A stretch of 59,414 bases of DNA, filler included, from Basidiobolus ranarum (lineage: Eukaryota), in the NCBI GenBank assembly GCA_040143965.1. It is 7 parts of 7 records of this genome, joined end to end, with 100 filler letters (N's around TTAATTAATTAA, not from the genome) between each part and the next. Parts side by side here need not be neighbours in the genome. Positions count along the whole stretch, not along the records: positions 1 to 8,428 come from JASJQH010007846.1; 6 more parts are not named here. One strand, written 5' to 3'. This document shows, piece by piece, positions 1,323 to 59,414 of the stretch. Within the stretch, counting starts at the first letter, position 1. Every line of letters starts with the position of its first letter. The notes below the pieces were generated by a model. That model did not search any database. It was given only the letters and a program-made list of their open reading frames with translations, and had not been told where the DNA came from. Made by a program: the position numbers and the translations under genes.

Positions 1323-4280
1323 ATGTCTAGACGACTATCAGATGCTTCAACCGCAATTTCGTCGTCAGTTAAGGAGGATCGTCCTATATGTAATGTTGAC
1401 TTTCTTTAGCAATTGGACTGAACTATATATTGACACATTATGTGCCTGAATTAAATTTAACCAGTTCGACAAAATTACCCTTCAACTCCTTTTCTTGAGC
1501 CTACTTCCCAATTCGTAGATGCCAAGGTATGCACACTTCTATTGCTAAGATTGAGTGATTTACAGTATTAAGCAAAGCTTAAAGTTTGTAGAAAATACCG
1601 ATATAAGCCAATATCAGCTAGAGCTGCAAGAATATTATATCATCCAAGACCTATTATTTGTTTTAATGGTAAGATTCATGAAGGTATATTCCAGATGCAG
1701 TAAGTCTTTGCTAACATGAACTATAACCAAATATAGGGTGTTGATGGGAAATTTATTCAGTTGGTAGAAATCAAACCAGTTGAAATCAACTTGTTACCTC
1801 GTGCAGAATGTCAAATCGAAGATTCTTTAGGTACAAACGTTTATTCAATACAGCCTGCTGTTAATTCTATTTAGTTACTAATCCTCTTCGATAGATGCAT
1901 CATTGTGCAGTCTCGTTAAAGAAATCACTCCTTTAGTTACCTATCATAGTACCATTAATAGTTTCCTAGAAAGTTATTCTCAATTTGACCGAGGGCGTAT
2001 CAATCACGCATTGTGTGCAGTAATTCGGAATTTACTCAAGGTTCGATTCATGAATAGGTCTCGACACAAAACAAGAATTATACTTACTACATTTTCTGTA
2101 GGAGTATTCACTTCTGATTGTTCAACTTGAGCATCAATTTCGTGCCTCTTCTTCCTTCACCCTTCAAAAACTTCGCTCTCATGTGTTCCCAAGCATCCAA
2201 ACGATGACTATTCTTCACTCATTGGTCGTGAAGATACACTCTGAAGTTAAGAGAAAGAGCCAAGGAACTTTGGCATATCCTAAAGGACATACTGTTCTCG
2301 ATGTCATCGCAAAAAGAATGCTCAGCACTAGCGGGTAAATGATAATGTTCAAATATGTGAGTGACTACGTCAATGAATTGCTAAACACAATGCTATATAG
2401 TGATCCTGGAGCTAAGCAACTTATTGCCCATTTACTGGCTAAAGCATCTGTACCATATTTTGAAATGCTATTATCCTGGATTAATTCTGGAAATCTCCGC
2501 GACCCATATGGCGAGTTTATGGTGAAGATTCGCGATGCTAAGCAATTGGATAGCAAATATGACGTGAACGATACATATCCTTCTGTTTTATCATCGATGC
2601 CAAATGATAATTCAATTTACCAATAATGTCCTTAACTTTTACTTACATTATGGGAAAAACAGTACGTATTCAGAGATGGAAGAATTCCATCGTTTCTTGA
2701 GCCTTACAAGGAGAAGATATTACTAGCTGGAAAATATCTCAACATCATTAAGCGCTGTAACATCTCTGTGGATAAAGCCCATCGACACGAGATTTTGAAG
2801 AATCAACAGTTTGAGCTAATAGAAGGTCTTGGGGATATCTTACGTGCCATGGGGGGCGGAAAGTAAGCATTAAAACCATCACCATCACCACTAAATATTC
2901 ATAGTTTCTTATATTTCTCTTGGTTAGATATATCCGCGATATCGAGGAGGCCTATCAATACTCAAATCGCCTTTTGCTTGATTATTTGACCGAAAACAAG
3001 AGCCTTCTTAGTCGGTTGAGGTGAGGTCTCTGTCTTCAACTCTCTGGAAATTTAAACTAACTTGTGCCGTTTTTTCAGATCTATCAAACGCTACTTTTTC
3101 TTGGATCAAGCGGATTTCCTCACCCATTTTTTGGATTTAGCAGCAGATGAACTCAAAAAAACTCATCGCGAGGTCTCTTATTCCAAATTGCAGGTGCTGT
3201 TAGATCTGGTGCTAAGAACCCCATCCTCTACTGCATCTAGTGACCCTTACAAAGAGAAATTGAAGGTAATGAAGTTGGGTCACATATCAACACCGAACTT
3301 GGCTGATTTCAAAAACTCGGTTGGAGATGTGGAGGGTGAGCTACAAAGACAAGTTGCGGGGATGACTGAGGATGCCAGCAGTAAGTTCCCTATATGTTGA
3401 TTTTGTGCAACTTCTGTATCTAAATCGGCACGTATTTTAAACCAGAAACCGGATACGATGTGCTTACGTTCGGCTATGATGTGGACTTCCCATTTTCTCT
3501 TGTAATCACGCCACGAACCATAGCCAAATACCAGCAAGTATTCCGACATTTACTGAAGCTTAAAAGAGTTGAACAACTACTCTCTCGTACGTGGGGATTA
3601 TCACGACAGATGTGGAAAACCATCCCCTCCAACGAATATCCACTTTTGATGAGAATTTACGCTCAATGTGGGAAAATGCTGTGTTTTGTCCAACAAGTTA
3701 TTTATTTCTTGGCCATCGAAGTTCTGGAGCCTAATTGGCAAGCATTAGAAAAACAACTAGCAAAGGTAAATACCTTGATTTTTTAGTGATTTGCTGTGGA
3801 ACAAGAGAACTTAGCCTAAATATTAATGTTAGGTTACAACTATCGATGAAGTGCTTCAATGCCACAATGATTATGTCGAAAGCTGTGTTCGTGAATGCAT
3901 GGTGGATAGCTCTAACCCTAGCCATAGTGAAGTAAGTTGCATAGATGTCTCTTGTCATCTCCGTTTATAGTGACTGGAACCATGCTCACAATCTTTTTTA
4001 GTTACTCTACAAAATATTGGATATCTGTACAAGATTTACGATCTCTGCTGATCGGATTATAAGACGCTTCAAGAATCCATCTAGACGCTCAGAGCCTTTA
4101 GAGAAAGCTCAGATACCTAAAGACGTTCAATCCTTAAACAATTCAGAGAAGCTATTTCACATCCATCTGGGTAAATTCTTAGATGGTCTTGATGTTCATG
4201 GCTCTGGAACCGCAAAACTACAGGCTCTGGCCGTGCGCCTAGATTATAATATGTATTATTCCAAATCCGCAAACGCGTGA
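1323..4280 (+). CDS. GCP2: Gamma-tubulin complex component 2 (GCP2/Spc97/Alp4), multi-exon
   Basis: Exon peptides QEYYIIQDLLFVLMGVDGKFI, ASVPYFEMLLSWINSGNLRDPYGEFMV, IPSFLEPYKEKILLAGKYLNII, SIKRYFFLDQADFLTHFLDLA, YDVDFPFSLVI..YQQVFRHLL and LAVRLDYNMYY are typical of GCP2. Many short GT-AG introns plus one AT-AC intron. Confidence 0.92.
2575..2646 (+). other. U12-type (minor spliceosome) AT-AC intron in GCP2
   Basis: 5' site ATATCCTT (2575-2582), branch point TCCTTAAC (2629-2636), 3' AC (2645-2646). Removal restores the frame DVNDT|LWEKQYVFRDGRIPSFL. Confidence 0.9.
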
Positions 4281-8528: not shown

Positions 8529-8753
8529 TGACTCGTTTCAACATATCTGATGTTACGATAGAGTGAACATTGATCTATAGTCACAATATCACTCGCATTT
8601 GACAGTTTCAAGAATGTCATAAGCCATAGGTGTTTCAAAAGGATAGTTTCACTATTTTACCACGTCTTCCTTCCTAAAATTATATATATAATTGCTTGTG
8701 AGTGAAAGCTAGTAGTGCAGTTCAGGAATAAACTGAATTTGTATCTTCTATTG

Positions 8754-9272
8754 ATGGGTCGGTCAACTTTATTCATCGGATTGGCACTTCTGCTATGCCT
8801 CAGCGGGTACACTTATGGGCAGTTTGTCACTTCCGGTTGGACCGGCCCTCCCCCCTTCAATTTCAATCCTCCTTTAACATGTCCGGATACACTTGTGACA
8901 AACATCACTTACATTGATAATATGGGTTGTGCAAGAATTCGTGTATCTGATGATGGTCTCTTTATACCTTGCTGCGAATTGAAAGAACGGTGCTATGGTA
9001 CTTGTGGCATGACAAAATTATTGTGCGAAGAGCAATTTCGGTATTGTATGCACACTTTATGTCCAGTTTATTTTAGAAGACATCCAGATCGTGGAAATCC
9101 AGGACGATGTGCTCAGTTCTGGGGTAGGATGGGCGGCCAGGGCCCCTTTGAATGGAAGTTATCTCAAGCAAAAGATTTCTCTTGTAGTGCGTTTGAATCT
9201 GCGCAACTTAGGAGTCGCTGCACTGTAGAATATTCTACCCCATATGGAATTGCAAAGAAAAAAGCTTACTGA
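8754..9272 (+). CDS. Secreted group XII phospholipase A2-like protein, catalytic dyad substituted
   Basis: Signal peptide MGRSTLFIGLALLLCLSG. CCELKERCYGTCGMTKLLCEEQFRYCMHTLC follows the PLA2G12 spacing CCxxHDxCYxTCGxxKxxCDxxFxxCLxxxC. Intronless. Confidence 0.8.
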   Translation: MGRSTLFIGLALLLCLSGYTYGQFVTSGWTGPPPFNFNPPLTCPDTLVTNITYIDNMGCARIRVSDDGLFIPCCELKERCYGTCGMTKLLCEEQFRYCMHTLCPVYFRRHPDRGNPGRCAQFWGRMGGQGPFEWKLSQAKDFSCSAFESAQLRSRCTVEYSTPYGIAKKKAY

Positions 9273-9595: not shown

Positions 9596-10227
9596 TTATT
9601 TCCATGGCTTTTTCTCGACATAAACATCGGTGGCCGGTTTGACGTCCTCTCTTTTTGTTGTCATAGAAACACCAGCAGTAGCAGTTAGGGCAATTATAGT
9701 GATAGCTTGGGCGTACATTCTAGCCTGTACGAGTTTTTGTGTAAACGTCATGTATTTTTGTCGAGAAAGGTAGAGCATAGAAATACTCATTCCAATCGCC
9801 CAGGTACCCCCAATAATACTGTACCGATGCTCAGCAATAAATTCTGACATAGAAGGAGCGGGCTCGGATTGAGTAACTACGTGCTCGTGCAAAATAGGGG
9901 CCATGTGCTTGGAAGGAATACTGGCCCTTACATGTCTATCAAATGTATGATATGCTCTCTCTCCATTAATTACTGCACCAGCGATGACAGCTGTAAAAGA
10001 TAATGACAAGAGTCAACAATACCGCTTAAGTTCCCTATCATACAAGCTCACATACCTGAACCGACCCAAAATGCTTTTAAAGGGACTGATAGAGTATTCA
10101 ACTTAGGGGCGAACTTGGGGCTCAAAAGTAAACCTATCCCACCTATAGCCAGCCCAGCGAGGCCGCCTGCTGCAGCACCCTTAACAGCGGAATCCCTGTA
10201 GCCTTCTAATTTCAAGTCAGAGGACAT
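9596..10227 (-). CDS. RCF2: HIG1-domain mitochondrial protein, respiratory supercomplex factor 2-like
   Basis: Two exons (intron 9991-10055). EHRYSIIGGTWAIGM...TFTQKLVQARMYAQAITI is the Rcf2-type HIG1 domain; N-terminal TM region present. Confidence 0.85.
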
Positions 10228-12553: not shown

Positions 12554-13195
12554 TTACAAACTACTTTGACAAACGGTCGGTAGTTGATTAATGTAAGGGC
12601 ACTGTTGAAGGTCTGGATATTGCGGAGAATACTTGTTATACAAATCCAACCAGCCTTTGCCACAGTCAGTTGAGCAGAGTTCCTTGGTTGGAGCAGGTGG
12701 TTGCACATTACTAGTATCATTCAATGGATGATCTTGCACGTATTTTTGGACTTGCTCAGCTGAGCAATAGTTGTTTTGGGTTGTATCCTTTAAACATAAC
12801 ATATCCCGAGCGGGAAGGTAGTTGCGTATTATAGCGGTGGCTGCTTGTACATATGGATTTTGAGCATCATCTCCCTGACAATTGTTTTGAATGTCCGTTT
12901 GAAGTTTGGATAAGAAATCTGGAGTACATGTAGGAGCTGTACAGACATCATTCACTGCTTCCGAGATTTGTTGTTGAGAGCTAGAAGGATTTTGTTGGAT
13001 TTGCTTCAACAATGGGACTACTTGTGCAACTGGGATACATCCTTGATCCTGGTTGGTAAGCTTAACGGCCAGACCCACTTGTAAACATTTAAATGATGGT
13101 AAAGGTAAGTTTCCAGTGTCCATTGGGTTTAGCGGAGCCGCGCTGACTATACTCAAAGAAGAAGTAATTACAACGGCTAAAGTAGATGCTTTCAT
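12554..13195 (-). CDS. Secreted cysteine-rich fungal protein (possibly DUF7729-like)
   Basis: 213-aa intronless ORF with signal peptide MKASTLAVVITSSLSIVSA and Cys pattern C..CIP..VC...C..C..NPYV..Y..RDMLCLKD...YC..LC..C. TATA-like element upstream. Family label tentative. Confidence 0.8.
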   Translation of the reverse strand: MKASTLAVVITSSLSIVSAAPLNPMDTGNLPLPSFKCLQVGLAVKLTNQDQGCIPVAQVVPLLKQIQQNPSSSQQQISEAVNDVCTAPTCTPDFLSKLQTDIQNNCQGDDAQNPYVQAATAIIRNYLPARDMLCLKDTTQNNYCSAEQVQKYVQDHPLNDTSNVQPPAPTKELCSTDCGKGWLDLYNKYSPQYPDLQQCPYINQLPTVCQSSL

Positions 13196-14762
13196 AGTGG
13201 CTTTTGCGTGTTTGAATTGGTTGCAAGGAGGTTCTTAATCAGTCCAACGGATATGTTAAAGCTTTTATATCTGTATTTCTTTGGTACCAGTGGTAAGTAA
13301 ACCCAACTTGGTGACTCGACCTTTTGGATGAGCATGTAGTTTGAGTACATCATATGACGTATTCTTGAACCAGCACAATAATCAGCTCTTGGATAGTCCA
13401 TAGGGTCATGAGTCGAATCGGAGTTATCATCGACAATCTTGGCATACTCCTACCACTGGGAAGTCAAGAATACATGGTAAGAGGATCCATCCAAGCCATA
13501 CGGTGGGTGTTAGTATTCGAAAGGTATTATGAGCTGTGAAATATTTCATGCCAATGGTGGCGTTGAAAAAAACAATCGACACAAGCACTAGTCATCCTAT
13601 TACGTCTTTTAGCAGTAATTGATTAAAGGATTAAACAGCCATTCGTCTGACCTACAAAGACTCTTGGCCAATCAGATCAATGGAAGAGACCCTTCCCGGT
13701 GTTTTGAAAGGCTGCAGAGACAAACTCCAAATAAGGGCAAGTACTAAATCGGCCTTTATCGTTAATAGGATATACAAGAAAATAGGTTGTCAGCTATAAA
13801 TATATGTCTTAGAACCTATCAAGATTATTACTAATTAAGTGTGCTCGTAATATAGCAGTATTAGTAACAGGTATATGACTCAACGAACCTCTTGTACCCT
13901 ACTTGGAGTTACGAAGTTCTCCATTTCAAACCTCTTCAATGCTCAAGGACATACCTATGCGCAAGTCACTTGCGAGTATTCATCTTCAAATGCATTAAGC
14001 ACAATTCAATCGGTATGCAGGAGCTATGGATTGTTAGGAACTATATACACCACATATCTGCTGTATTATGTTTACCTGGCTTCAACAATATATAATATGA
14101 TCTGCGAAGAACGAGCCATAGTTTGATTTCAGATGGGTGCAGGCACCGAAGTGGTCTGGTAACATGGTGTAGTCTAGTGCAACTCGATATGGTGATGCTC
14201 ACCCCATATATATGTTCACCATCCAATTCGAAGGGAGCTGGTGCATCTGTTGTTTGACAAAGTAAACTTTGAACGTTTATCATTGTTACGCATAAGTTCG
14301 AATTTCAATTGGAAATACCTATTCCAAATATGTACTATGATCAATCCTTAAACTACACAATTGTTGGCGATGCTGTCTCTAATGTCTTGATATGGAGTAT
14401 TTATTCAACAATCGAGGCCATTATTGTTACACATCAATTAAGCGGGAGATTTGAAATTTCAAGGGTACTTCAATAAAGAAGTTGTTAGAGTCAATCCACT
14501 ATATCGAACAATTTAGAAGTCAACATGTACCAACAAATCAATAAAGAGGAAAGTGCCACAAGATAGCAATTCCATTTCAGTTTTATATTCTTCCCATTGT
14601 AGTACAGTAGTGCTCTTTTTTGTACCAAGAATTCAGTAACCCATCTATCTCCGATTTGAGGATCCATAGTAGTTTTAGACTGTCAAAAATGTATATATAT
14701 CAGAATAGTCTTGCCTTTAGGACATCACCCACTTCTCCATCTCATTCTCTTATACCTTAATC

Positions 14763-15467: not shown

Positions 15468-16326
15468 GTTCACGAAAAATGCCCCTTAATTGATTGAATC
15501 TTTTACTGAACAAATAGATATTTGTTCGGCAACATACAGATGATACTAATAGCATCAAAGTTTTATTTTAATTTCAAACCTTACTTACTTTGGTTTACAT
15601 GATTTCACATTCAATAAATACGGAAAGTTCCATTAACTCGATACGTTTTAATACCTATGTACAATTATAAATCCCGGTTAAGTTACTGAGTGTAATATAT
15701 ATAATACCGAATATATAAAAAATATATGATAGAATATAATAATAATAATAATAAGTCTTGACAACCAAGTGATCCCACATACGATTTCATTTCCTTAAAA
15801 GCTAAAGGCCAAGTGTATTAAAGATCCTTATTGTCATTGGAATTTCCTAGATGTAACATCGGGAATTAATTGAGGAGAAATAGAGAGATTCAAGGTGAAT
15901 CAACCGATGAGGCATGAGAAACAAGAGTACTATGATTTTTGGAATGCAACCGATTCGAAACACAATGATTTCTGGAAAGGAATCTTTTAGATGGAATTGT
16001 TATGTACGTCGAGTGCACACCTGCCTTGCATTAACTTCAAACGAATTATTCAAAATAGTTTCCAGATACATAATTGTTTGTTTCCTCAACGCTGGTAAAC
16101 TGGTAGTGTATAGTGGAAACATGAAACTACACTTTCCTACTTAAACACATAGTCTGCAACAAACACTCACATATTTTGTGCTTTAACTCTTCTACTCTGA
16201 GGAATCGGTCTAGTCTTTACTGGTATATAAACTAGCCCTCCGCTTCTCAACAATCAAGTTTGTAGACGCATTTATCAGAAACGTACCATTTCAAACCCTT
16301 GTAGTATCTTCCCTAGGAATTCAGAG

Positions 16327-16944
16327 ATGATGGAACAAAAATACCGCTATGTTAGGGAACTTGGTAAAGGCGCTTATGGCTTAGTTAGGTCAGCAAAATG
16401 TCTAGCCACCGGAGAAGAGGTGGCCGTAAAGAAAGTAACCAAAATATTCGAAAAGAAACTTTTGGCCAAGCGTGCATTGAGAGAATTGAAGTTGTTGAGA
16501 CATTTCAATGGCCACGAGAATGTCATCTCCGTGTATGATATGGAGCTAACAGATCCTCTCAAGTTTCAAGAGATCTATTTGGTTCAAGAGTTGATGGAAG
16601 CTGACTTGCACCAAATCATACGATCGAAGCAAGCCTTGACGAATGCGCATTATCAATACTTCATCTATCAGATATGTCGAGGTCTGAAGTATATTCACTC
16701 TGCCAATGTACTGCATCGGGATTTAAAACCAGGCAACTTACTGGTGAATCGCGACTGTGAACTAAAGATATGCGATTTCGGACTTGCTAGGGGGTTTGTT
16801 GACGCCACGAAAAATGAGAGCGGTTTTATGACTGAGTATGTAGCAACTCGATACTATAGAGCACCTGAAATCATGCTGTAGAATCAGTCCTACACAAAGG
16901 CAATTGATTTATGGTGGGTTGGATGCATATTTGCCGAGCTCCTG
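16327..16944 (+). pseudogene. MPK1: Cell-wall-integrity MAP kinase (Mpk1/Slt2 type), intronless, in-frame TAG at 16879-16881, truncated by contig end
   Basis: [49 protein letters not shown] and the TEY loop are present. Homology continues past the stop (NQSYTKAIDLWWVGCIFAELL). Kinase identity is secure; pseudogene status is uncertain. Confidence 0.7.
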
Positions 16945-18940: not shown

Positions 18941-20068
18941 AAATAACTCTCTAATTTTATGTTGGTTCATGTCCAATGACGCATCGAGCCTATTTTGTTA
19001 ATCCAAGATGGATGGCCTGGATGCAATAGCCAATAAAATATTCAGATTATGGTTCTTGATATGTAGTGAACTCAACCATGGAATTTTCTCTAAGCCACCA
19101 GGAATAGTCTGTGAGAGCTACCGTCCTTAGAGTGATATGATCAGACCACTGGTAGTTCCAAACTTCCAAATGTGAATGTATAAACTAGGCCCTTTTTGGT
19201 GGGATACTTACGTGGTTGATTGCGTTAACATCAATACGATACTTATAATTGATTACCGAATCTTATATTATTCATAGACTATATATCATTCATAGACATG
19301 TAGTCTCTACACCACAAAGTAACAAATAACCAGGTTTAGAGGGAGGTTTACTTCGCATTGGTTGTAGAAAATGCCCTTTCAATGTGAGTCCAAATTTGGT
19401 ATATTGAGGGACCTTTATTTATACGGGATATAATACAATCTCAATTAGAATAGTGGGTTAATTTCTGGACGGTGCGAATGTGAGAAAATGGTTTCCACTG
19501 TCCTGTAACTTGGCTAACACATGTTGAGAGTGTGTTATATATGGAGATTTCAAACAGGCTGTAGTAACCTTGAGACGTTATCACACTACGGAGTGCGGAA
19601 TCCAAAATGAGTGTTACAAAAGATACACTATCAAACTACATAAAAATCTGAAGCCCATCGAATCAATTTTTATTTTGGACCACGACTTCATATGAGCTGA
19701 TATGTAGTCATCGTGCTTACTAGCTCTATTCCATGATTCGAATGACTGGTGGGAAAGCTGTGTATTCCATCCAACGTGGTAGATGAACGTCGGAACGATG
19801 AAAAAAACAAAATTGGAAAAGAAAGTAGAGTTTACCTAAAAAGGGAGGATTGTCAACTAAAATGGCGAGCGATTAGAGAACAGCAAAATTGGGGCACAAG
19901 TAGCGGCGTCTACGGAAGAAATATTTAAACAGGGTAGGATCCCATATAGTCTGGGCACAAACAGATATAGAATATCTGATCAAAACAAGGAAAATAAATC
20001 ATCTTAAATCTGTGAGCGAAAACTCACACCTGTTCTCGCTTTCGAGCTTCTTCTTTACACAAGAAAAG

Positions 20069-21295
20069 ATGGCTTTAACACGAGCGTTCCGTCCACTTCT
20101 TTTAATACTATTTGTTATTGCTACTTTAACATTTTGGTACATTTTCTATTGTTTCAGTCCCCATGATCAATCGACAGCAAGTAATTACATGCCCAATTTC
20201 CAAGAGATGCTATCTCCAAAAGCCAAGTTGGAACATGCATCTGACCAATACCCGGAATTCGCTATCGCTCTAAAGACAGGTAGAGATGTAGTTGCGGAGC
20301 GATGCGCTATCCAAACCAACACATTCCTCGGCAATGCAAAAAACGTGATTTTAATTGCAGAATCGTCAGAAGTTTCACTCGGTGACATTCCAGTTTACGA
20401 CGTATACACAGACACACTTAAGAACAGCACACATAAGCAGCTGAAAAAAAGAGCGAAAGACGCCGTTACGGTTGATGAAAGCAGTTTAGGCTGGCAATTA
20501 GACGCACATAAAAATATTCCTGGAATGCGCCTTCTATACGAAAAATATCCACACGCTGAATGGTATATAATGCTCGACGATGATACCTATATGTTTTTTG
20601 ACAATCTCCGAAGACGCATCAAAAGTCAAAAACTGGATCCAACTCAACCTCATTACCTTGGAGCAAGTAGCGTGTTCACGGGTTGTGATGGCATTACTTC
20701 CTTCGATGACAGCCCGGGCTTCGCTCATGGAGGTAGTGGAATAGTCGTCTCTAAAGGAGCGTTGGAAAAAATGTTGAAGGTGATAGATAACTGTATTGAT
20801 CGGTATAGAGACTGCTGGGGTGGTGATATTCGCCTGGCACTTTGCATGAGAGATGCTGGAGTGCTCCTTACACCTGAATCTGATTTCAACTCAAATCCAC
20901 CGAATGTGGAGTTTCCCTTCCATGATCGAAACCCATGTACACAACCAATCACTTTCCATCACTTGTTACCACAGCAAATCCAATTGCTGTATGAAACAGA
21001 GAGGAAGATGCAAGGAAATGTTACCTATGCGGATGTTGTGGATCGCTTCAAGCACCTGAACCATAACACAGTCAACAAACTGGAACGGGATGGCGACGGT
21101 TACACCAAGATCAGTGTCACAGATATGAAAAAGTGCCGATCATTATGTGAAAATGATACTCGATGCATTTCTTGGTCGTTTGTTGATAGTGTATGCCACT
21201 TAAGAGACTCTCAGACTCAACTCACTCGTGTTGAGAATGAGAAGTCCTTTTCGAACATCTATCCAATGCACTACACCTGTTCTCACAGTCAGTGA
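20069..21295 (+). CDS. GT31 (Fringe/C1GALT1-like) glycosyltransferase with C-terminal PAN/apple domain
   Basis: Type II TM anchor; WYIMLDDDTYMF (DxD); FAHGGSGIVVS; GDIRLALC; PITFHH. C-terminal CRSLCENDTRCISWSFVDSVCHL is PAN-like. Intronless. Confidence 0.88.
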   Translation: MALTRAFRPLLLILFVIATLTFWYIFYCFSPHDQSTASNYMPNFQEMLSPKAKLEHASDQYPEFAIALKTGRDVVAERCAIQTNTFLGNAKNVILIAESSEVSLGDIPVYDVYTDTLKNSTHKQLKKRAKDAVTVDESSLGWQLDAHKNIPGMRLLYEKYPHAEWYIMLDDDTYMFFDNLRRRIKSQKLDPTQPHYLGASSVFTGCDGITSFDDSPGFAHGGSGIVVSKGALEKMLKVIDNCIDRYRDCWGGDIRLALCMRDAGVLLTPESDFNSNPPNVEFPFHDRNPCTQPITFHHLLPQQIQLLYETERKMQGNVTYADVVDRFKHLNHNTVNKLERDGDGYTKISVTDMKKCRSLCENDTRCISWSFVDSVCHLRDSQTQLTRVENEKSFSNIYPMHYTCSHSQ

Positions 21296-56692: not shown

Positions 56693-57841
56693 CTACTCAG
56701 AGTTAGAACCGTGGGTGTCTGGCGCTAGTTCATCTTCGTTATCACTTTCACCTTCGCTAGAATTCACCTCCTTTCGAAGATTGCTGGGAGCCTTTGGTGG
56801 TTGACGAGGGGTTTCTTCGATCTTTATCTTTTTGTTCTCTCGAGCACCATTCTCGGATGGCTCATGTGATCCATTGGCTCCACTATATGAAGACATTTCT
56901 TTCTCATAACGCTCCTTGTCTTTCTCGTACATGTCATAATATTTCTGAAGTGACGAAGAAGACAACCCGTTAAAAAAGTATCTAAGATTTGAAGCATGAA
57001 ACGCAGTCAGAAGATTACCTTTTTCTCAGTTGGATCTAGCGTTTTCCAACTTGCAGATAACATCTTAGTTAAATCGCCAAGACTAGCATCCTGATGTTCC
57101 TCTTTAAGTTGAGACCTTTGTAACTGGCAATACATGAAAAATGCATTGGCCGGTCGTTTAGGGGCGTTAGGATCTTTTTCTGGACGTTTTGGTGTGATTG
57201 TCTCCTTCTCGGGACGTTTTTGCTTTTCCACGGCTGCAATGGCCTCTGTTTCTGACTGTTTAACGTATATAAAGGTTACATTCATGGCTTTTTCAACTGG
57301 TTCGATAACCTCAGTAAATATCCTTTCTTACCTCGGAATGTGAATCCCCAGCAGCTCCACCCTGTGTCTCTTCTAGTATTCCAAACAGAAAGCTAAAGTT
57401 GTGGGTTAATTTCAAAAGGTTACGAAAGAGGAGGAAAGTTGAATTCTGCATCCGATAAACAAACATAGAATTCATCTTAAAATAAAGAAAATAAACAAAA
57501 AAATTCACCTTCTTTCGACTTTCAAACGTTGAACTCTCTTTTTAGCTCGATTAATTTTGATAACAAATCTTTCGTTTGTCTGATATTTTTTGAAGAAATT
57601 AAGAGTTTAGTGAAAGGTTATTTATGGTGGTGAGGGATATGTAAAGTGAGTGAGTGTTATCTTACTTGCTCTATTTCACCAACTTTCCTCTTTAATTCTT
57701 TATACTTCTTTTTATACTTGAACTCTATAAGAAATAGATAAAGGGTTAAACACTTTTTTCTAGAATTTAGTGAATTGCTCAAGATCACGTTTACAAGGTA
57801 AGGTGAACCGATGCGAAGAAAGGAAATTTACCATCTGACAT
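56693..57841 (-). CDS. NHP10: HMG-box protein, Nhp10-like INO80 complex subunit
   Basis: N-terminal coiled coil KYKKKYKELKRKVGEIEQ..RAKKRVQRLKVERSFL; HMG box KDPNAPKRPANAFFMYC...LSASWKTL...KYYDMYEKDKERYEKEM. Multi-exon. Confidence 0.8.
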
Positions 57842-58390
57842 AGCTGAAGATCTTGGGGGGAAGGAGTATGGGAAAAGTCTATTTATTGTATCAGTAGAAA
57901 CCAACTGGAAGTTAAGCAAAACTTTCTATACGAGAGTGTACACTTGTAGTATATACCGGTATTTTGTTTAACCAATTCTCAACTTAGAAGTTGCACGGTT
58001 TTACCAAACACTAGTCAGATTTTTCCCTTTGTTGGGACCTTTTTTTTTCTTGACTTTGGTCATATCCTTCCGAGCCACACCATCTATGAATCGTTGTGTG
58101 ATTTGTGTGTATAGTTGTTTAGAATCATGTTAAAATATCTAGAAGATCCTTGATGTATTCGAAATAAAAGTCTAGATCAAGAAATAGTACCCATTGAATC
58201 CAAATAATCTATGGGTTGAGATGGGATGGGCACTAATGTCTACTATTAGTGAAGCATCATGAACAGCTACTCAAATCATCCTTTTTTTTTATCGATAAAT
58301 AATTTCCGGAAATTTCTTGACTAAGGAATATGTGGAGATGATTCCACTTGTTCAGATATTTTTCGCGTTCCAAACCTACCTTTCAAGAAC

Positions 58391-59039
58391 ATGACCACAA
58401 ATCCACCGAGTCAAACGATCTATCTACGTAATCTAAACGAGAAAGTTAGAAAAGATGGTAAAGAGAGAATCTGTATATTCATCACAGGATCTTTACTAAT
58501 TTTAAAGGGGATCTTGTTTTTTTTCTTCCAACTGTGTTTAGAGTTGAAAATGTCACTTTACGCACTTTTCTCTGCATATGGACGTATACAGGATGTGGTG
58601 GCATTAAAAACAACGAAAATGAGAGGACAAGCTTTCATTTGTTTTGAAGAGATCTCTTCGGCCACCTCTGCTATACGCGGTCTTCAAGGATTTGCTTTTT
58701 ATGATAAACCCATGGTAAGTAAAAATTTCCCTTGAAACCTTACCCAATAGCACTATATTTATATTTGGACTTCACCTAGGAAATTCAATACAGTAAGACA
58801 AAGTCCAACGTAATCAAAAGAATGAATGGCGTCTACGATGATTCTTTCAGAAAACGTGAACGTGAAGAAGATGGAGGTAAATGATACTTAAATAGGATGA
58901 TTTATTCTCAATATGATATTCTAACCTGATACTTTATTTTCTTTTATCCCCTCCTTTCACTCTTTTTTTTCTCTTTCATTCCTTGGATTATGTAGATTTA
59001 AACCCAACGAAGTTTAGAGAAACCAGTATAATGTCTTGA
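58391..59039 (+). CDS. MSL1: U2 snRNP B'' (U1A/U2B'' family), single RRM, 4 exons
   Basis: [44 protein letters not shown] (U2B''-type VALKT loop), [15 protein letters not shown]; stop TGA 59037-59039. Confidence 0.85.
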
Positions 59040-59414
59040 ATCTGATTTAATACAATGGACATCCTTTCTTTTCAACAACCATTATAATATCCATGAATAT
59101 ATACATATACAAGCGTCATTTCCCTGTCAGATAATCCATTGGTTTACCAAACTTATTGGTGAGATTAAAGAGATGTTTTCATTGTATGAGTGCCTGACCA
59201 CATAGCTTCTACGCAGTCACTTGAATCTCAACCTATATCACACATTAGAATAATTCATAATTCAATCGGTTGAAACTTTGTAAATGGGGAGGGAAGTCCC
59301 ATATCATCTCCAAAGTGGGTAGTCACACACAACATGGTCAGAACAAAATGGTTTTATAATTGAAGGTTTAAGAGTTCGGAAAGGTTGTAGATCGATATGA
59401 GTGTCATTGGAGAC

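Follow-up and report, generated by a model that had tools for sequence, protein, structure and literature searches.

The gene for a gamma-tubulin complex subunit of Basidiobolus ranarum is interrupted between its seventh and eighth exons by a 72-nt stretch that begins with AT and ends with AC, which raises the question of where this stretch is cut and by which spliceosome. It occupies positions 2575–2646 (+) of the window (the whole 59-kb stretch of DNA that was analysed, 59,414 nt) and reads ATATCCTTCTGTTTTATCATCGATGCCAAATGATAATTCAATTTACCAATAATGTCCTTAACTTTTACTTAC, with a G+C content of 28%. A first-pass annotation had interpreted it as an AT-AC intron of the U12 type within a fungal GCP2 gene. 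Its coordinates and motifs were found to be exact, and the motifs, their spacing, the reading frame, the conserved GCP2 segment restored by removal and the junction in a public protein all agree with the description. Judged from the sequence, the stretch is very probably a U12-type AT-AC intron of GCP2 that is excised at 2574/2647; it is referred to below as intron 7.

The host gene was identified by searching with the translation of exon 8 (window 2648–2860), which returned an NCBI protein of 722 aa from B. ranarum that was 100% identical (P0001, named 'gamma tubulin complex Spc97/GCP2 subunit Alp4 [Basidiobolus ranarum]') and a protein of B. meristosporus that was 87% identical (P0002). Mapping of P0001 onto the window placed 722 of 722 residues without mismatch in 13 blocks, the two remaining residues being derived from split codons. 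The GCP2/Spc97/Alp4 coding sequence accordingly extends on the plus strand from 1323 to 4280 (stop included) and comprises exons 1 (1323–1389), 2 (1465–1526), 3 (1585–1668), 4 (1737–1830), 5 (1895–2040), 6 (2102–2334), 7 (2401–2574), 8 (2647–2862), 9 (2928–3020), 10 (3079–3380), 11 (3446–3765), 12 (3833–3931) and 13 (4002–4280, stop included), all on the plus strand. P0001 contains the Pfam domains GCP_N_terminal (PF17681, 1e-68) and GCP_C_terminal (GRIP; PF04130, 1.8e-65). Its best matches among solved structures were GCP2 chains (E values of 3.7e-104 to 4.9e-102), followed in the same search by GCP3 (6.4e-47) and GCP4 (~1e-19); by these structure-chain E values, the gene appears closer to GCP2 than to GCP3 or GCP4. 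NCBI taxonomy assigns B. ranarum to the Basidiobolomycota, and the genus Basidiobolus is placed in the Zoopagomycota in PMC10639083 and PMC11347168.

All donor/acceptor pairs that reproduce P0001 were enumerated, giving 12 introns. A GT-AG solution was obtained for 11 of them (58–75 nt long), and intron 7 was the sole non-GT-AG intron of the gene: six equivalent cut positions reproduce P0001 here, and recognised termini are found only in the AT-AC solution 2575–2646 (+), an intron of phase 2. Exon 7 ends in ...KYDVND followed by AC, the first two bases of a Thr codon, and exon 8 starts with the A that completes this codon and continues with LWEKQYVFRDGRIPSFLEPYKEKILLAGKYLN. The joined flanks read ...GAC GTG AAC GAT AC|A TTA TGG GAA AAA CAG TAC..., corresponding to DVNDT|LWEKQY, so that excision of a segment with AT-AC termini restores the frame and reproduces P0001 exactly. 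Retention of the intron would place in-frame stops at 2621–2623 and 2630–2632, and with the upstream AC at 2641–2642 as the acceptor, the intron would be only 68 nt long and the frame would be shifted.

The internal elements are those of the minor class. The 5' splice site ATATCCTT (2575–2582, +), the site for pairing with U11 and U6atac, matches the U12 consensus [A/G]TATCCTT from the first base of the intron. The branch-point sequence (2629–2636, +), the site for U12 pairing, is an exact TCCTTAAC and agrees with the TTCCTTRAY-type consensus. Ten bases lie between its end and the end of the intron, whose terminal AC is located at 2645–2646 (+). The branch adenosine is presumably A2634 or A2635, which lie 12 and 11 nt, respectively, from the last base of the intron. 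The usual distance between the branch point and the 3' splice site of U12-type introns is about 10–15 nt, and the distance found here is short, in keeping with the constraint on this class. According to PMC11347168, the minor 5' site is bound by U11 and U6atac through its positions +4 to +9, and the spacing between the minor branch site and the 3' site is defined.

Either 8-mer by itself is unremarkable, RTATCCTT alone having 8 matches in the window (5.6 expected) and TCCTTAAC alone having 3 (2.1 expected). The combined pattern ATATCCTT-N30-60-TCCTTAAC-N6-14-AC occurs once in the window, at 2575–2646, and was absent from all of 100 dinucleotide-preserving shuffles; its ends match, to the base, the junction demanded by protein homology. 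A relaxed scan of both strands of the window for a consensus 5' site and a consensus branch site at a short distance from the 3' end gave no second site. The RTATCCTT matches at 12783, 23618, 23802, 28894, 47294 (minus strand), 57318 and 58062 are not accompanied by a suitably spaced consensus branch motif and were rejected as chance occurrences. The match at 57318 is antisense to an HMG-box open reading frame, those at 12783 and 47294 lie opposite open reading frames on the other strand, and that at 58062 precedes the start codon of a U1A/U2B''-like gene.

The peptide that results from splicing at 2574/2647 is conserved. In HMMER, it can be aligned without gaps to the GCP2 chains of solved Xenopus and human structures (skydvndtlwekqyvfrdgripsfle in B. 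ranarum, qedyndkywdqrytivqqqipsflq in the structures). A wider alignment was assembled from 121 GCP2 proteins, including those of fungi and vertebrates (6 from the exon 8 search and 115 from a further search). Trp289 and Tyr293 were invariant in 121 of 121 proteins. The 11-residue motif carried a small insertion in two of the 121 and a gap, with the upstream half missing, in one (P0003, considered below).

This conservation bears on the possibility that a conventional U2-type GT-AG or GC-AG intron is spliced through nearby sites, for instance 2585–2662 or 2564–2662, and that the AT-AC arrangement is coincidental. Between exons 7 and 8, 48 alternatives are in frame and free of stops (23 GT-AG and 25 GC-AG), the shortest being 2599–2673 (75 nt, GC-AG), 2585–2662 (78 nt) and 2564–2662 (99 nt), and the gene is not free of weak donors (intron 5 begins with GTTCGA). 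The first-pass annotation had reported finding no GT-AG alternative; taken literally, this is contradicted by the 23 in-frame GT-AG combinations, although they are rejected by the conservation of Trp289. AG is absent between the last in-frame stop (2630–2632) and the Trp codon (2651–2653), and every one of the 48 alternatives, with acceptors at or beyond 2662, therefore deletes this residue, which is invariant in all 121 proteins. Moreover, none of the alternatives reproduces P0001, their lengths (75–279 nt) are mostly far above the 58–75 nt of the other introns, and a conventional intron would leave the perfect U12 motifs (0 of 100 shuffles) as an unexplained coincidence. Since conservation rejects the GT-AG and GC-AG alternatives, the AT-AC solution is supported, and a conventional intron is considered very improbable.

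A second alternative accepts the AT-AC termini and assigns their removal to the major (U2-dependent) spliceosome, as for a few AT-AC introns. Termini alone leave the spliceosome undefined, and intron termini and class are described as decoupled in PMC10639083 and PMC11347168. Against this, both elements diagnostic of the minor class, ATATCCTT and TCCTTAAC, are present in consensus form, the latter with a short, fixed spacing to the 3' end. U2-type AT-AC introns are characterised by a 5' site of the major type and are not known to carry these minor-class elements. This alternative is judged just as improbable as the first. Least credible of all, to the point of being negligible, is that the stretch is left unspliced in a pseudogene or an assembly artefact, as its two in-frame stops on retention might suggest, given that none of the other 12 exons is disrupted, the scores of both GCP domains greatly exceed their cut-offs, the B. 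meristosporus orthologue is 90% identical over residues 180–420, and the stretch has an intron-like length and composition (28% G+C).

For a U12-type intron 7, established minor-class behaviour predicts the following course. The 5' end would be recognised by U11 snRNA and later by U6atac, each pairing with ATATCCTT, whereas U12 snRNA would pair with TCCTTAAC, bulging the branch adenosine 11–12 nt from the 3' end. The minor spliceosome would then cut out everything from C2574 to A2647, both exclusive, so that AC|A forms the Thr codon of ...KYDVNDT-LWEKQY.... The TTAAC within the branch motif also matches the loose U2 branch consensus, so that occasional use of the AG at 2661–2662 is compatible with the sequence; occasional splicing to this downstream site is possible.

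The first-pass annotation had further suspected that GCP2 is probably mis-annotated. This suspicion was not borne out, as P0001 is already spliced at 2574/2647, reading DVNDT|LWEKQY, and P0002, the B. meristosporus orthologue, has the same peptide junction; both proteins read ...KYDVNDTLWEKQY..., and the junction peptide of P0001 recurs unchanged in P0002 and in a B. ranarum paralogue, P0004. Protein homology could be the source of the 2574/2647 junction in the annotation of P0001. An annotation problem was met with in the second GCP2 paralogue. The B. meristosporus copy of this paralogue, P0003, reads ...VDWGG-TLWERQ... and is without exactly the exon 7-equivalent residues, which are retained in the B. 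ranarum copy, P0004 (...VDWGGDQSTKY...KYDVNDTLWERQ). The gene model of P0003 does look wrong from this comparison, and the gap would fit a predictor unable to use an AT-AC intron.

Excision of intron 7 as a U12-type intron presupposes minor-class snRNAs. At the gathering score, Rfam gave no match in the 59-kb window, so no gene for U11, U12, U4atac or U6atac lies there, a result that carries little weight for the genome as a whole. Two matches obtained in the window at E<=1, MIR8675 (29.7 bits; gathering score, 90.8) and GlsR14 (23.4 bits; gathering score, 90), were dismissed as chance. For B. meristosporus, 249 minor introns (0.554% of introns) have been reported by Larue & Roy 2023 (PMC10639083) and 237 by Olthof et al. 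2024 (PMC11347168), and no other fungus is known to have so high a density of minor introns. According to PMC11347168, its snRNA genes above the Rfam threshold comprise two for U11 and one for U6atac, and U12 and U4atac are represented only by lower-confidence candidates below the threshold. Intron 7 and the B. meristosporus data together make a working minor spliceosome in B. ranarum very likely, and the species should carry U11, U12, U4atac and U6atac. As far as reported in PMC10639083, convincing minor introns are not found in Ascomycota or Basidiomycota and the class is absent from Dikarya, and some early-diverging fungi have minor introns; the first-pass annotation, according to which minor introns were lost in Dikarya and kept in some early-diverging fungi, agrees with this source.

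The age of the intron position was approached through a trace that an unspliced donor leaves at the protein level, the phase-2 read-through of AC|ATATCCTTCT being translated as T-Y-P-S. Intron 7 interrupts, in phase 2, the codon that precedes the invariant Tyr/Leu-Trp. With exon 7 and its read-through (window 2402–2620) as the query, an exhaustive HMMER search returned 208 proteins at E<=0.001, of which the best 150 were taken, 140 of them new. According to the profile alignment, 93 of these 140 cross the junction; one of the 93, P0213, belongs with the fragments described next. In five short ORF-like fragments among the best 150 of the 208, GCP2 homology ends exactly with the residue that aligns to Thr287, and the fragment goes on with x-Tyr-Pro: P0122 (DVNDT|YPLL), P0139 (DYNDK|YPFL), P0149 (DLLDE|YPLL), P0169 (DYNDG|YPII) and P0213 (DYNDA|YPWI). 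This is the phase-2 translation of [A/G]TATCC. The x residues (T, K, E, G and A) all allow a purine at the third codon position, K and E require one, and the codon after x-Tyr-Pro can begin with T, as in TATCCTT, in four of the five fragments. P0122, P0169 and P0213 are closest to fish GCP2 (54–62% over ~60 residues), and P0149 shares 92% identity with P0038 of Thamnocephalis over 36 residues. A word-indexed search for short GCP2 fragments (40–128 aa) with exon 7 plus read-through yielded no candidate.

At least four other fragments stop matching at the same codon with a GT-type read-through or an immediate stop, which is a U2-like pattern. P0146 (A|YVPY) corresponds to GTATGT and P0130 (T|CVQ) to GTGTGT; P0145 and P0171 end immediately, as GTAA, GTGA or GTAG would cause them to do; and P0142 reads N|Y and then ends. 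In P0240, which shares 98% identity with Neocallimastigomycota-like proteins, the break comes one residue sooner (D|VNNHF, corresponding to GTAAAT in phase 0). The continuation of P0128, EEYHICK, which follows a break at the same codon as in intron 7, is uninterpretable. From these read-through signatures, there is an even chance that the position is old, still occupied by a U12-type intron in several distant lineages (animal-like and Thamnocephalis-like ones among them), by a U2-type intron elsewhere (Mucorales-like lineages and others) and no longer by a minor intron in mammals. A gain of intron 7 specific to Basidiobolus is less likely, given the x-Tyr-Pro fragments from other lineages. If the position is indeed old, GCP2 would provide a natural series for studies of U12-to-U2 conversion.

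Intron 7 may be regarded as a textbook-quality fungal minor intron and can serve as a positive control for the annotation of Basidiobolus genomes. The U12 class is already published, as are its occurrence among early-diverging fungi and the large number of such introns in Basidiobolus, and intron 7 is implicitly present in the public coding sequence. Existing knowledge is unchanged, as the genus already held the density record and the public protein already has the junction. The added value is modest and lies in a minor intron in GCP2, a gene outside the searched human and mouse minor-intron lists, and in the read-through signatures, which hint at an ancient position whose type has changed in some lineages.

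The human and mouse minor-intron lists in eight supplementary files of PMC6717393 include MAPK8, E2F1 and NEDD1, which served as positive controls, and contain neither TUBGCP nor TUBG. TUBGCP likewise did not occur in the supplements of PMC11347168, and neither did the Ensembl identifiers of human TUBGCP2-6, the identifiers providing a weak check. Literature searches retrieved no paper on a minor intron in GCP2/TUBGCP2. Within the gene itself, introns 1–6 and 8–12 resemble intron 7 in length (58–75 nt) and low G+C content. They differ from it in their termini, starting with GT (GTA in 9 of 11) and ending with AG, whereas intron 7 has AT and AC. Several of them carry a CTAAC-like branch site, and TATCC and TCCTTAAC are found in none of the 11. 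Among known minor introns, the AT-AC intron of human and mouse E2F1 shares the 5' core ATATCCTT with intron 7. The human intron is listed in PMC6717393 with the 5' splice site GCGATATCCTTG and the branch-point sequence TGGTCCTTGACT, whose core TCCTTGAC is near-identical to the TCCTTAAC of intron 7; it resides in a different gene and is 660 nt long, as opposed to 72 nt. The closest counterparts are the minor introns of B. meristosporus, the species analysed in the published surveys, whereas intron 7 is from B. ranarum. They belong to the same genus and the same class, and the GCP2 orthologue of B. meristosporus, P0002, carries the identical junction peptide.

A second GCP2 paralogue is present in Basidiobolus. 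The B. ranarum protein (P0004) shows 58% identity across residues 180–420, and it shares the junction ...KYDVNDTLWERQY with the GCP2 encoded in the window. The B. meristosporus model of this paralogue (P0003) lacks precisely the equivalent of exon 7 and reads ..VDWGG|TLWERQ.. at this point, a loss that would fit the failure of a gene predictor at an AT-AC intron. The extra Thr in P0003 could be a codon made up of the intron's terminal AC and the base that opens the following exon.

Five short GCP2 fragments retrieved by the HMMER search (P0122, P0139, P0149, P0169 and P0213) break at the homologous codon and continue with x-Tyr-Pro, the translation of [A/G]TATCC by read-through. GT-type read-through or an instant stop was found in other fragments (P0130, P0142, P0145, P0146 and P0171), and P0240 breaks one residue earlier. 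Since fragments break at the homologous codon with differing read-through, these protein records suggest that the intron position in GCP2 is old and that its type differs between lineages.

Elsewhere in the window, ATATCCTT, a match to the U12-type 5' splice site pattern, occurs at 58062, upstream of the start codon (at about 58394) of a U1A/U2B''-like snRNP protein gene (58394–59414, +); no good branch motif was found for this match. The RRM ORF of the gene (58325–58732, +) matches the human U2B'' and U1A chains (E about 4e-22 for the RRM exon), and its product belongs to the major spliceosome and is not specific to the minor one. A further ATATCCTT at 57318 (+) was rejected as an intron signal and regarded as a chance match, because it lies antisense to an HMG-box ORF (57010–57327, −; PF00505, 3.2e-13).

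The window consists of unremarkable fungal DNA that is dense in genes and has a G+C content of about 33–42%. Exon-sized ORFs within 8706–31063 have Pfam matches to HIG_1_N (9599–10012, −), DUF7729 (12557–13234, −), protein kinase (16231–16878, +), Fringe-like/DUF604 with a PAN domain (19904–21292, +), ABC transporter (24114–25499, −), ArfGAP (25624–26013, +), CAP family (27479–28027, −) and DUF4646 (30089–31063, −); there is also a PLA2G12-like ORF (8706–9269, +) whose weak match falls under the cut-off. Rfam gave two sub-threshold matches, both probably due to chance. MIR8675 (38624–38705, +) scores 29.7 bits against a gathering score of 90.8 (E 0.1). For the C/D-box snoRNA GlsR14 (16581–16661, −), the score is 23.4 bits against 90 (E 0.28).

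NEDD1, a gamma-tubulin ring complex targeting factor, is identified in the gene list by its symbol alone. As far as the mouse and human minor-intron lists in supplement file 1 of PMC6717393 are concerned, no TUBGCP or TUBG genes are included, and NEDD1 appears as a minor-intron gene in both species.
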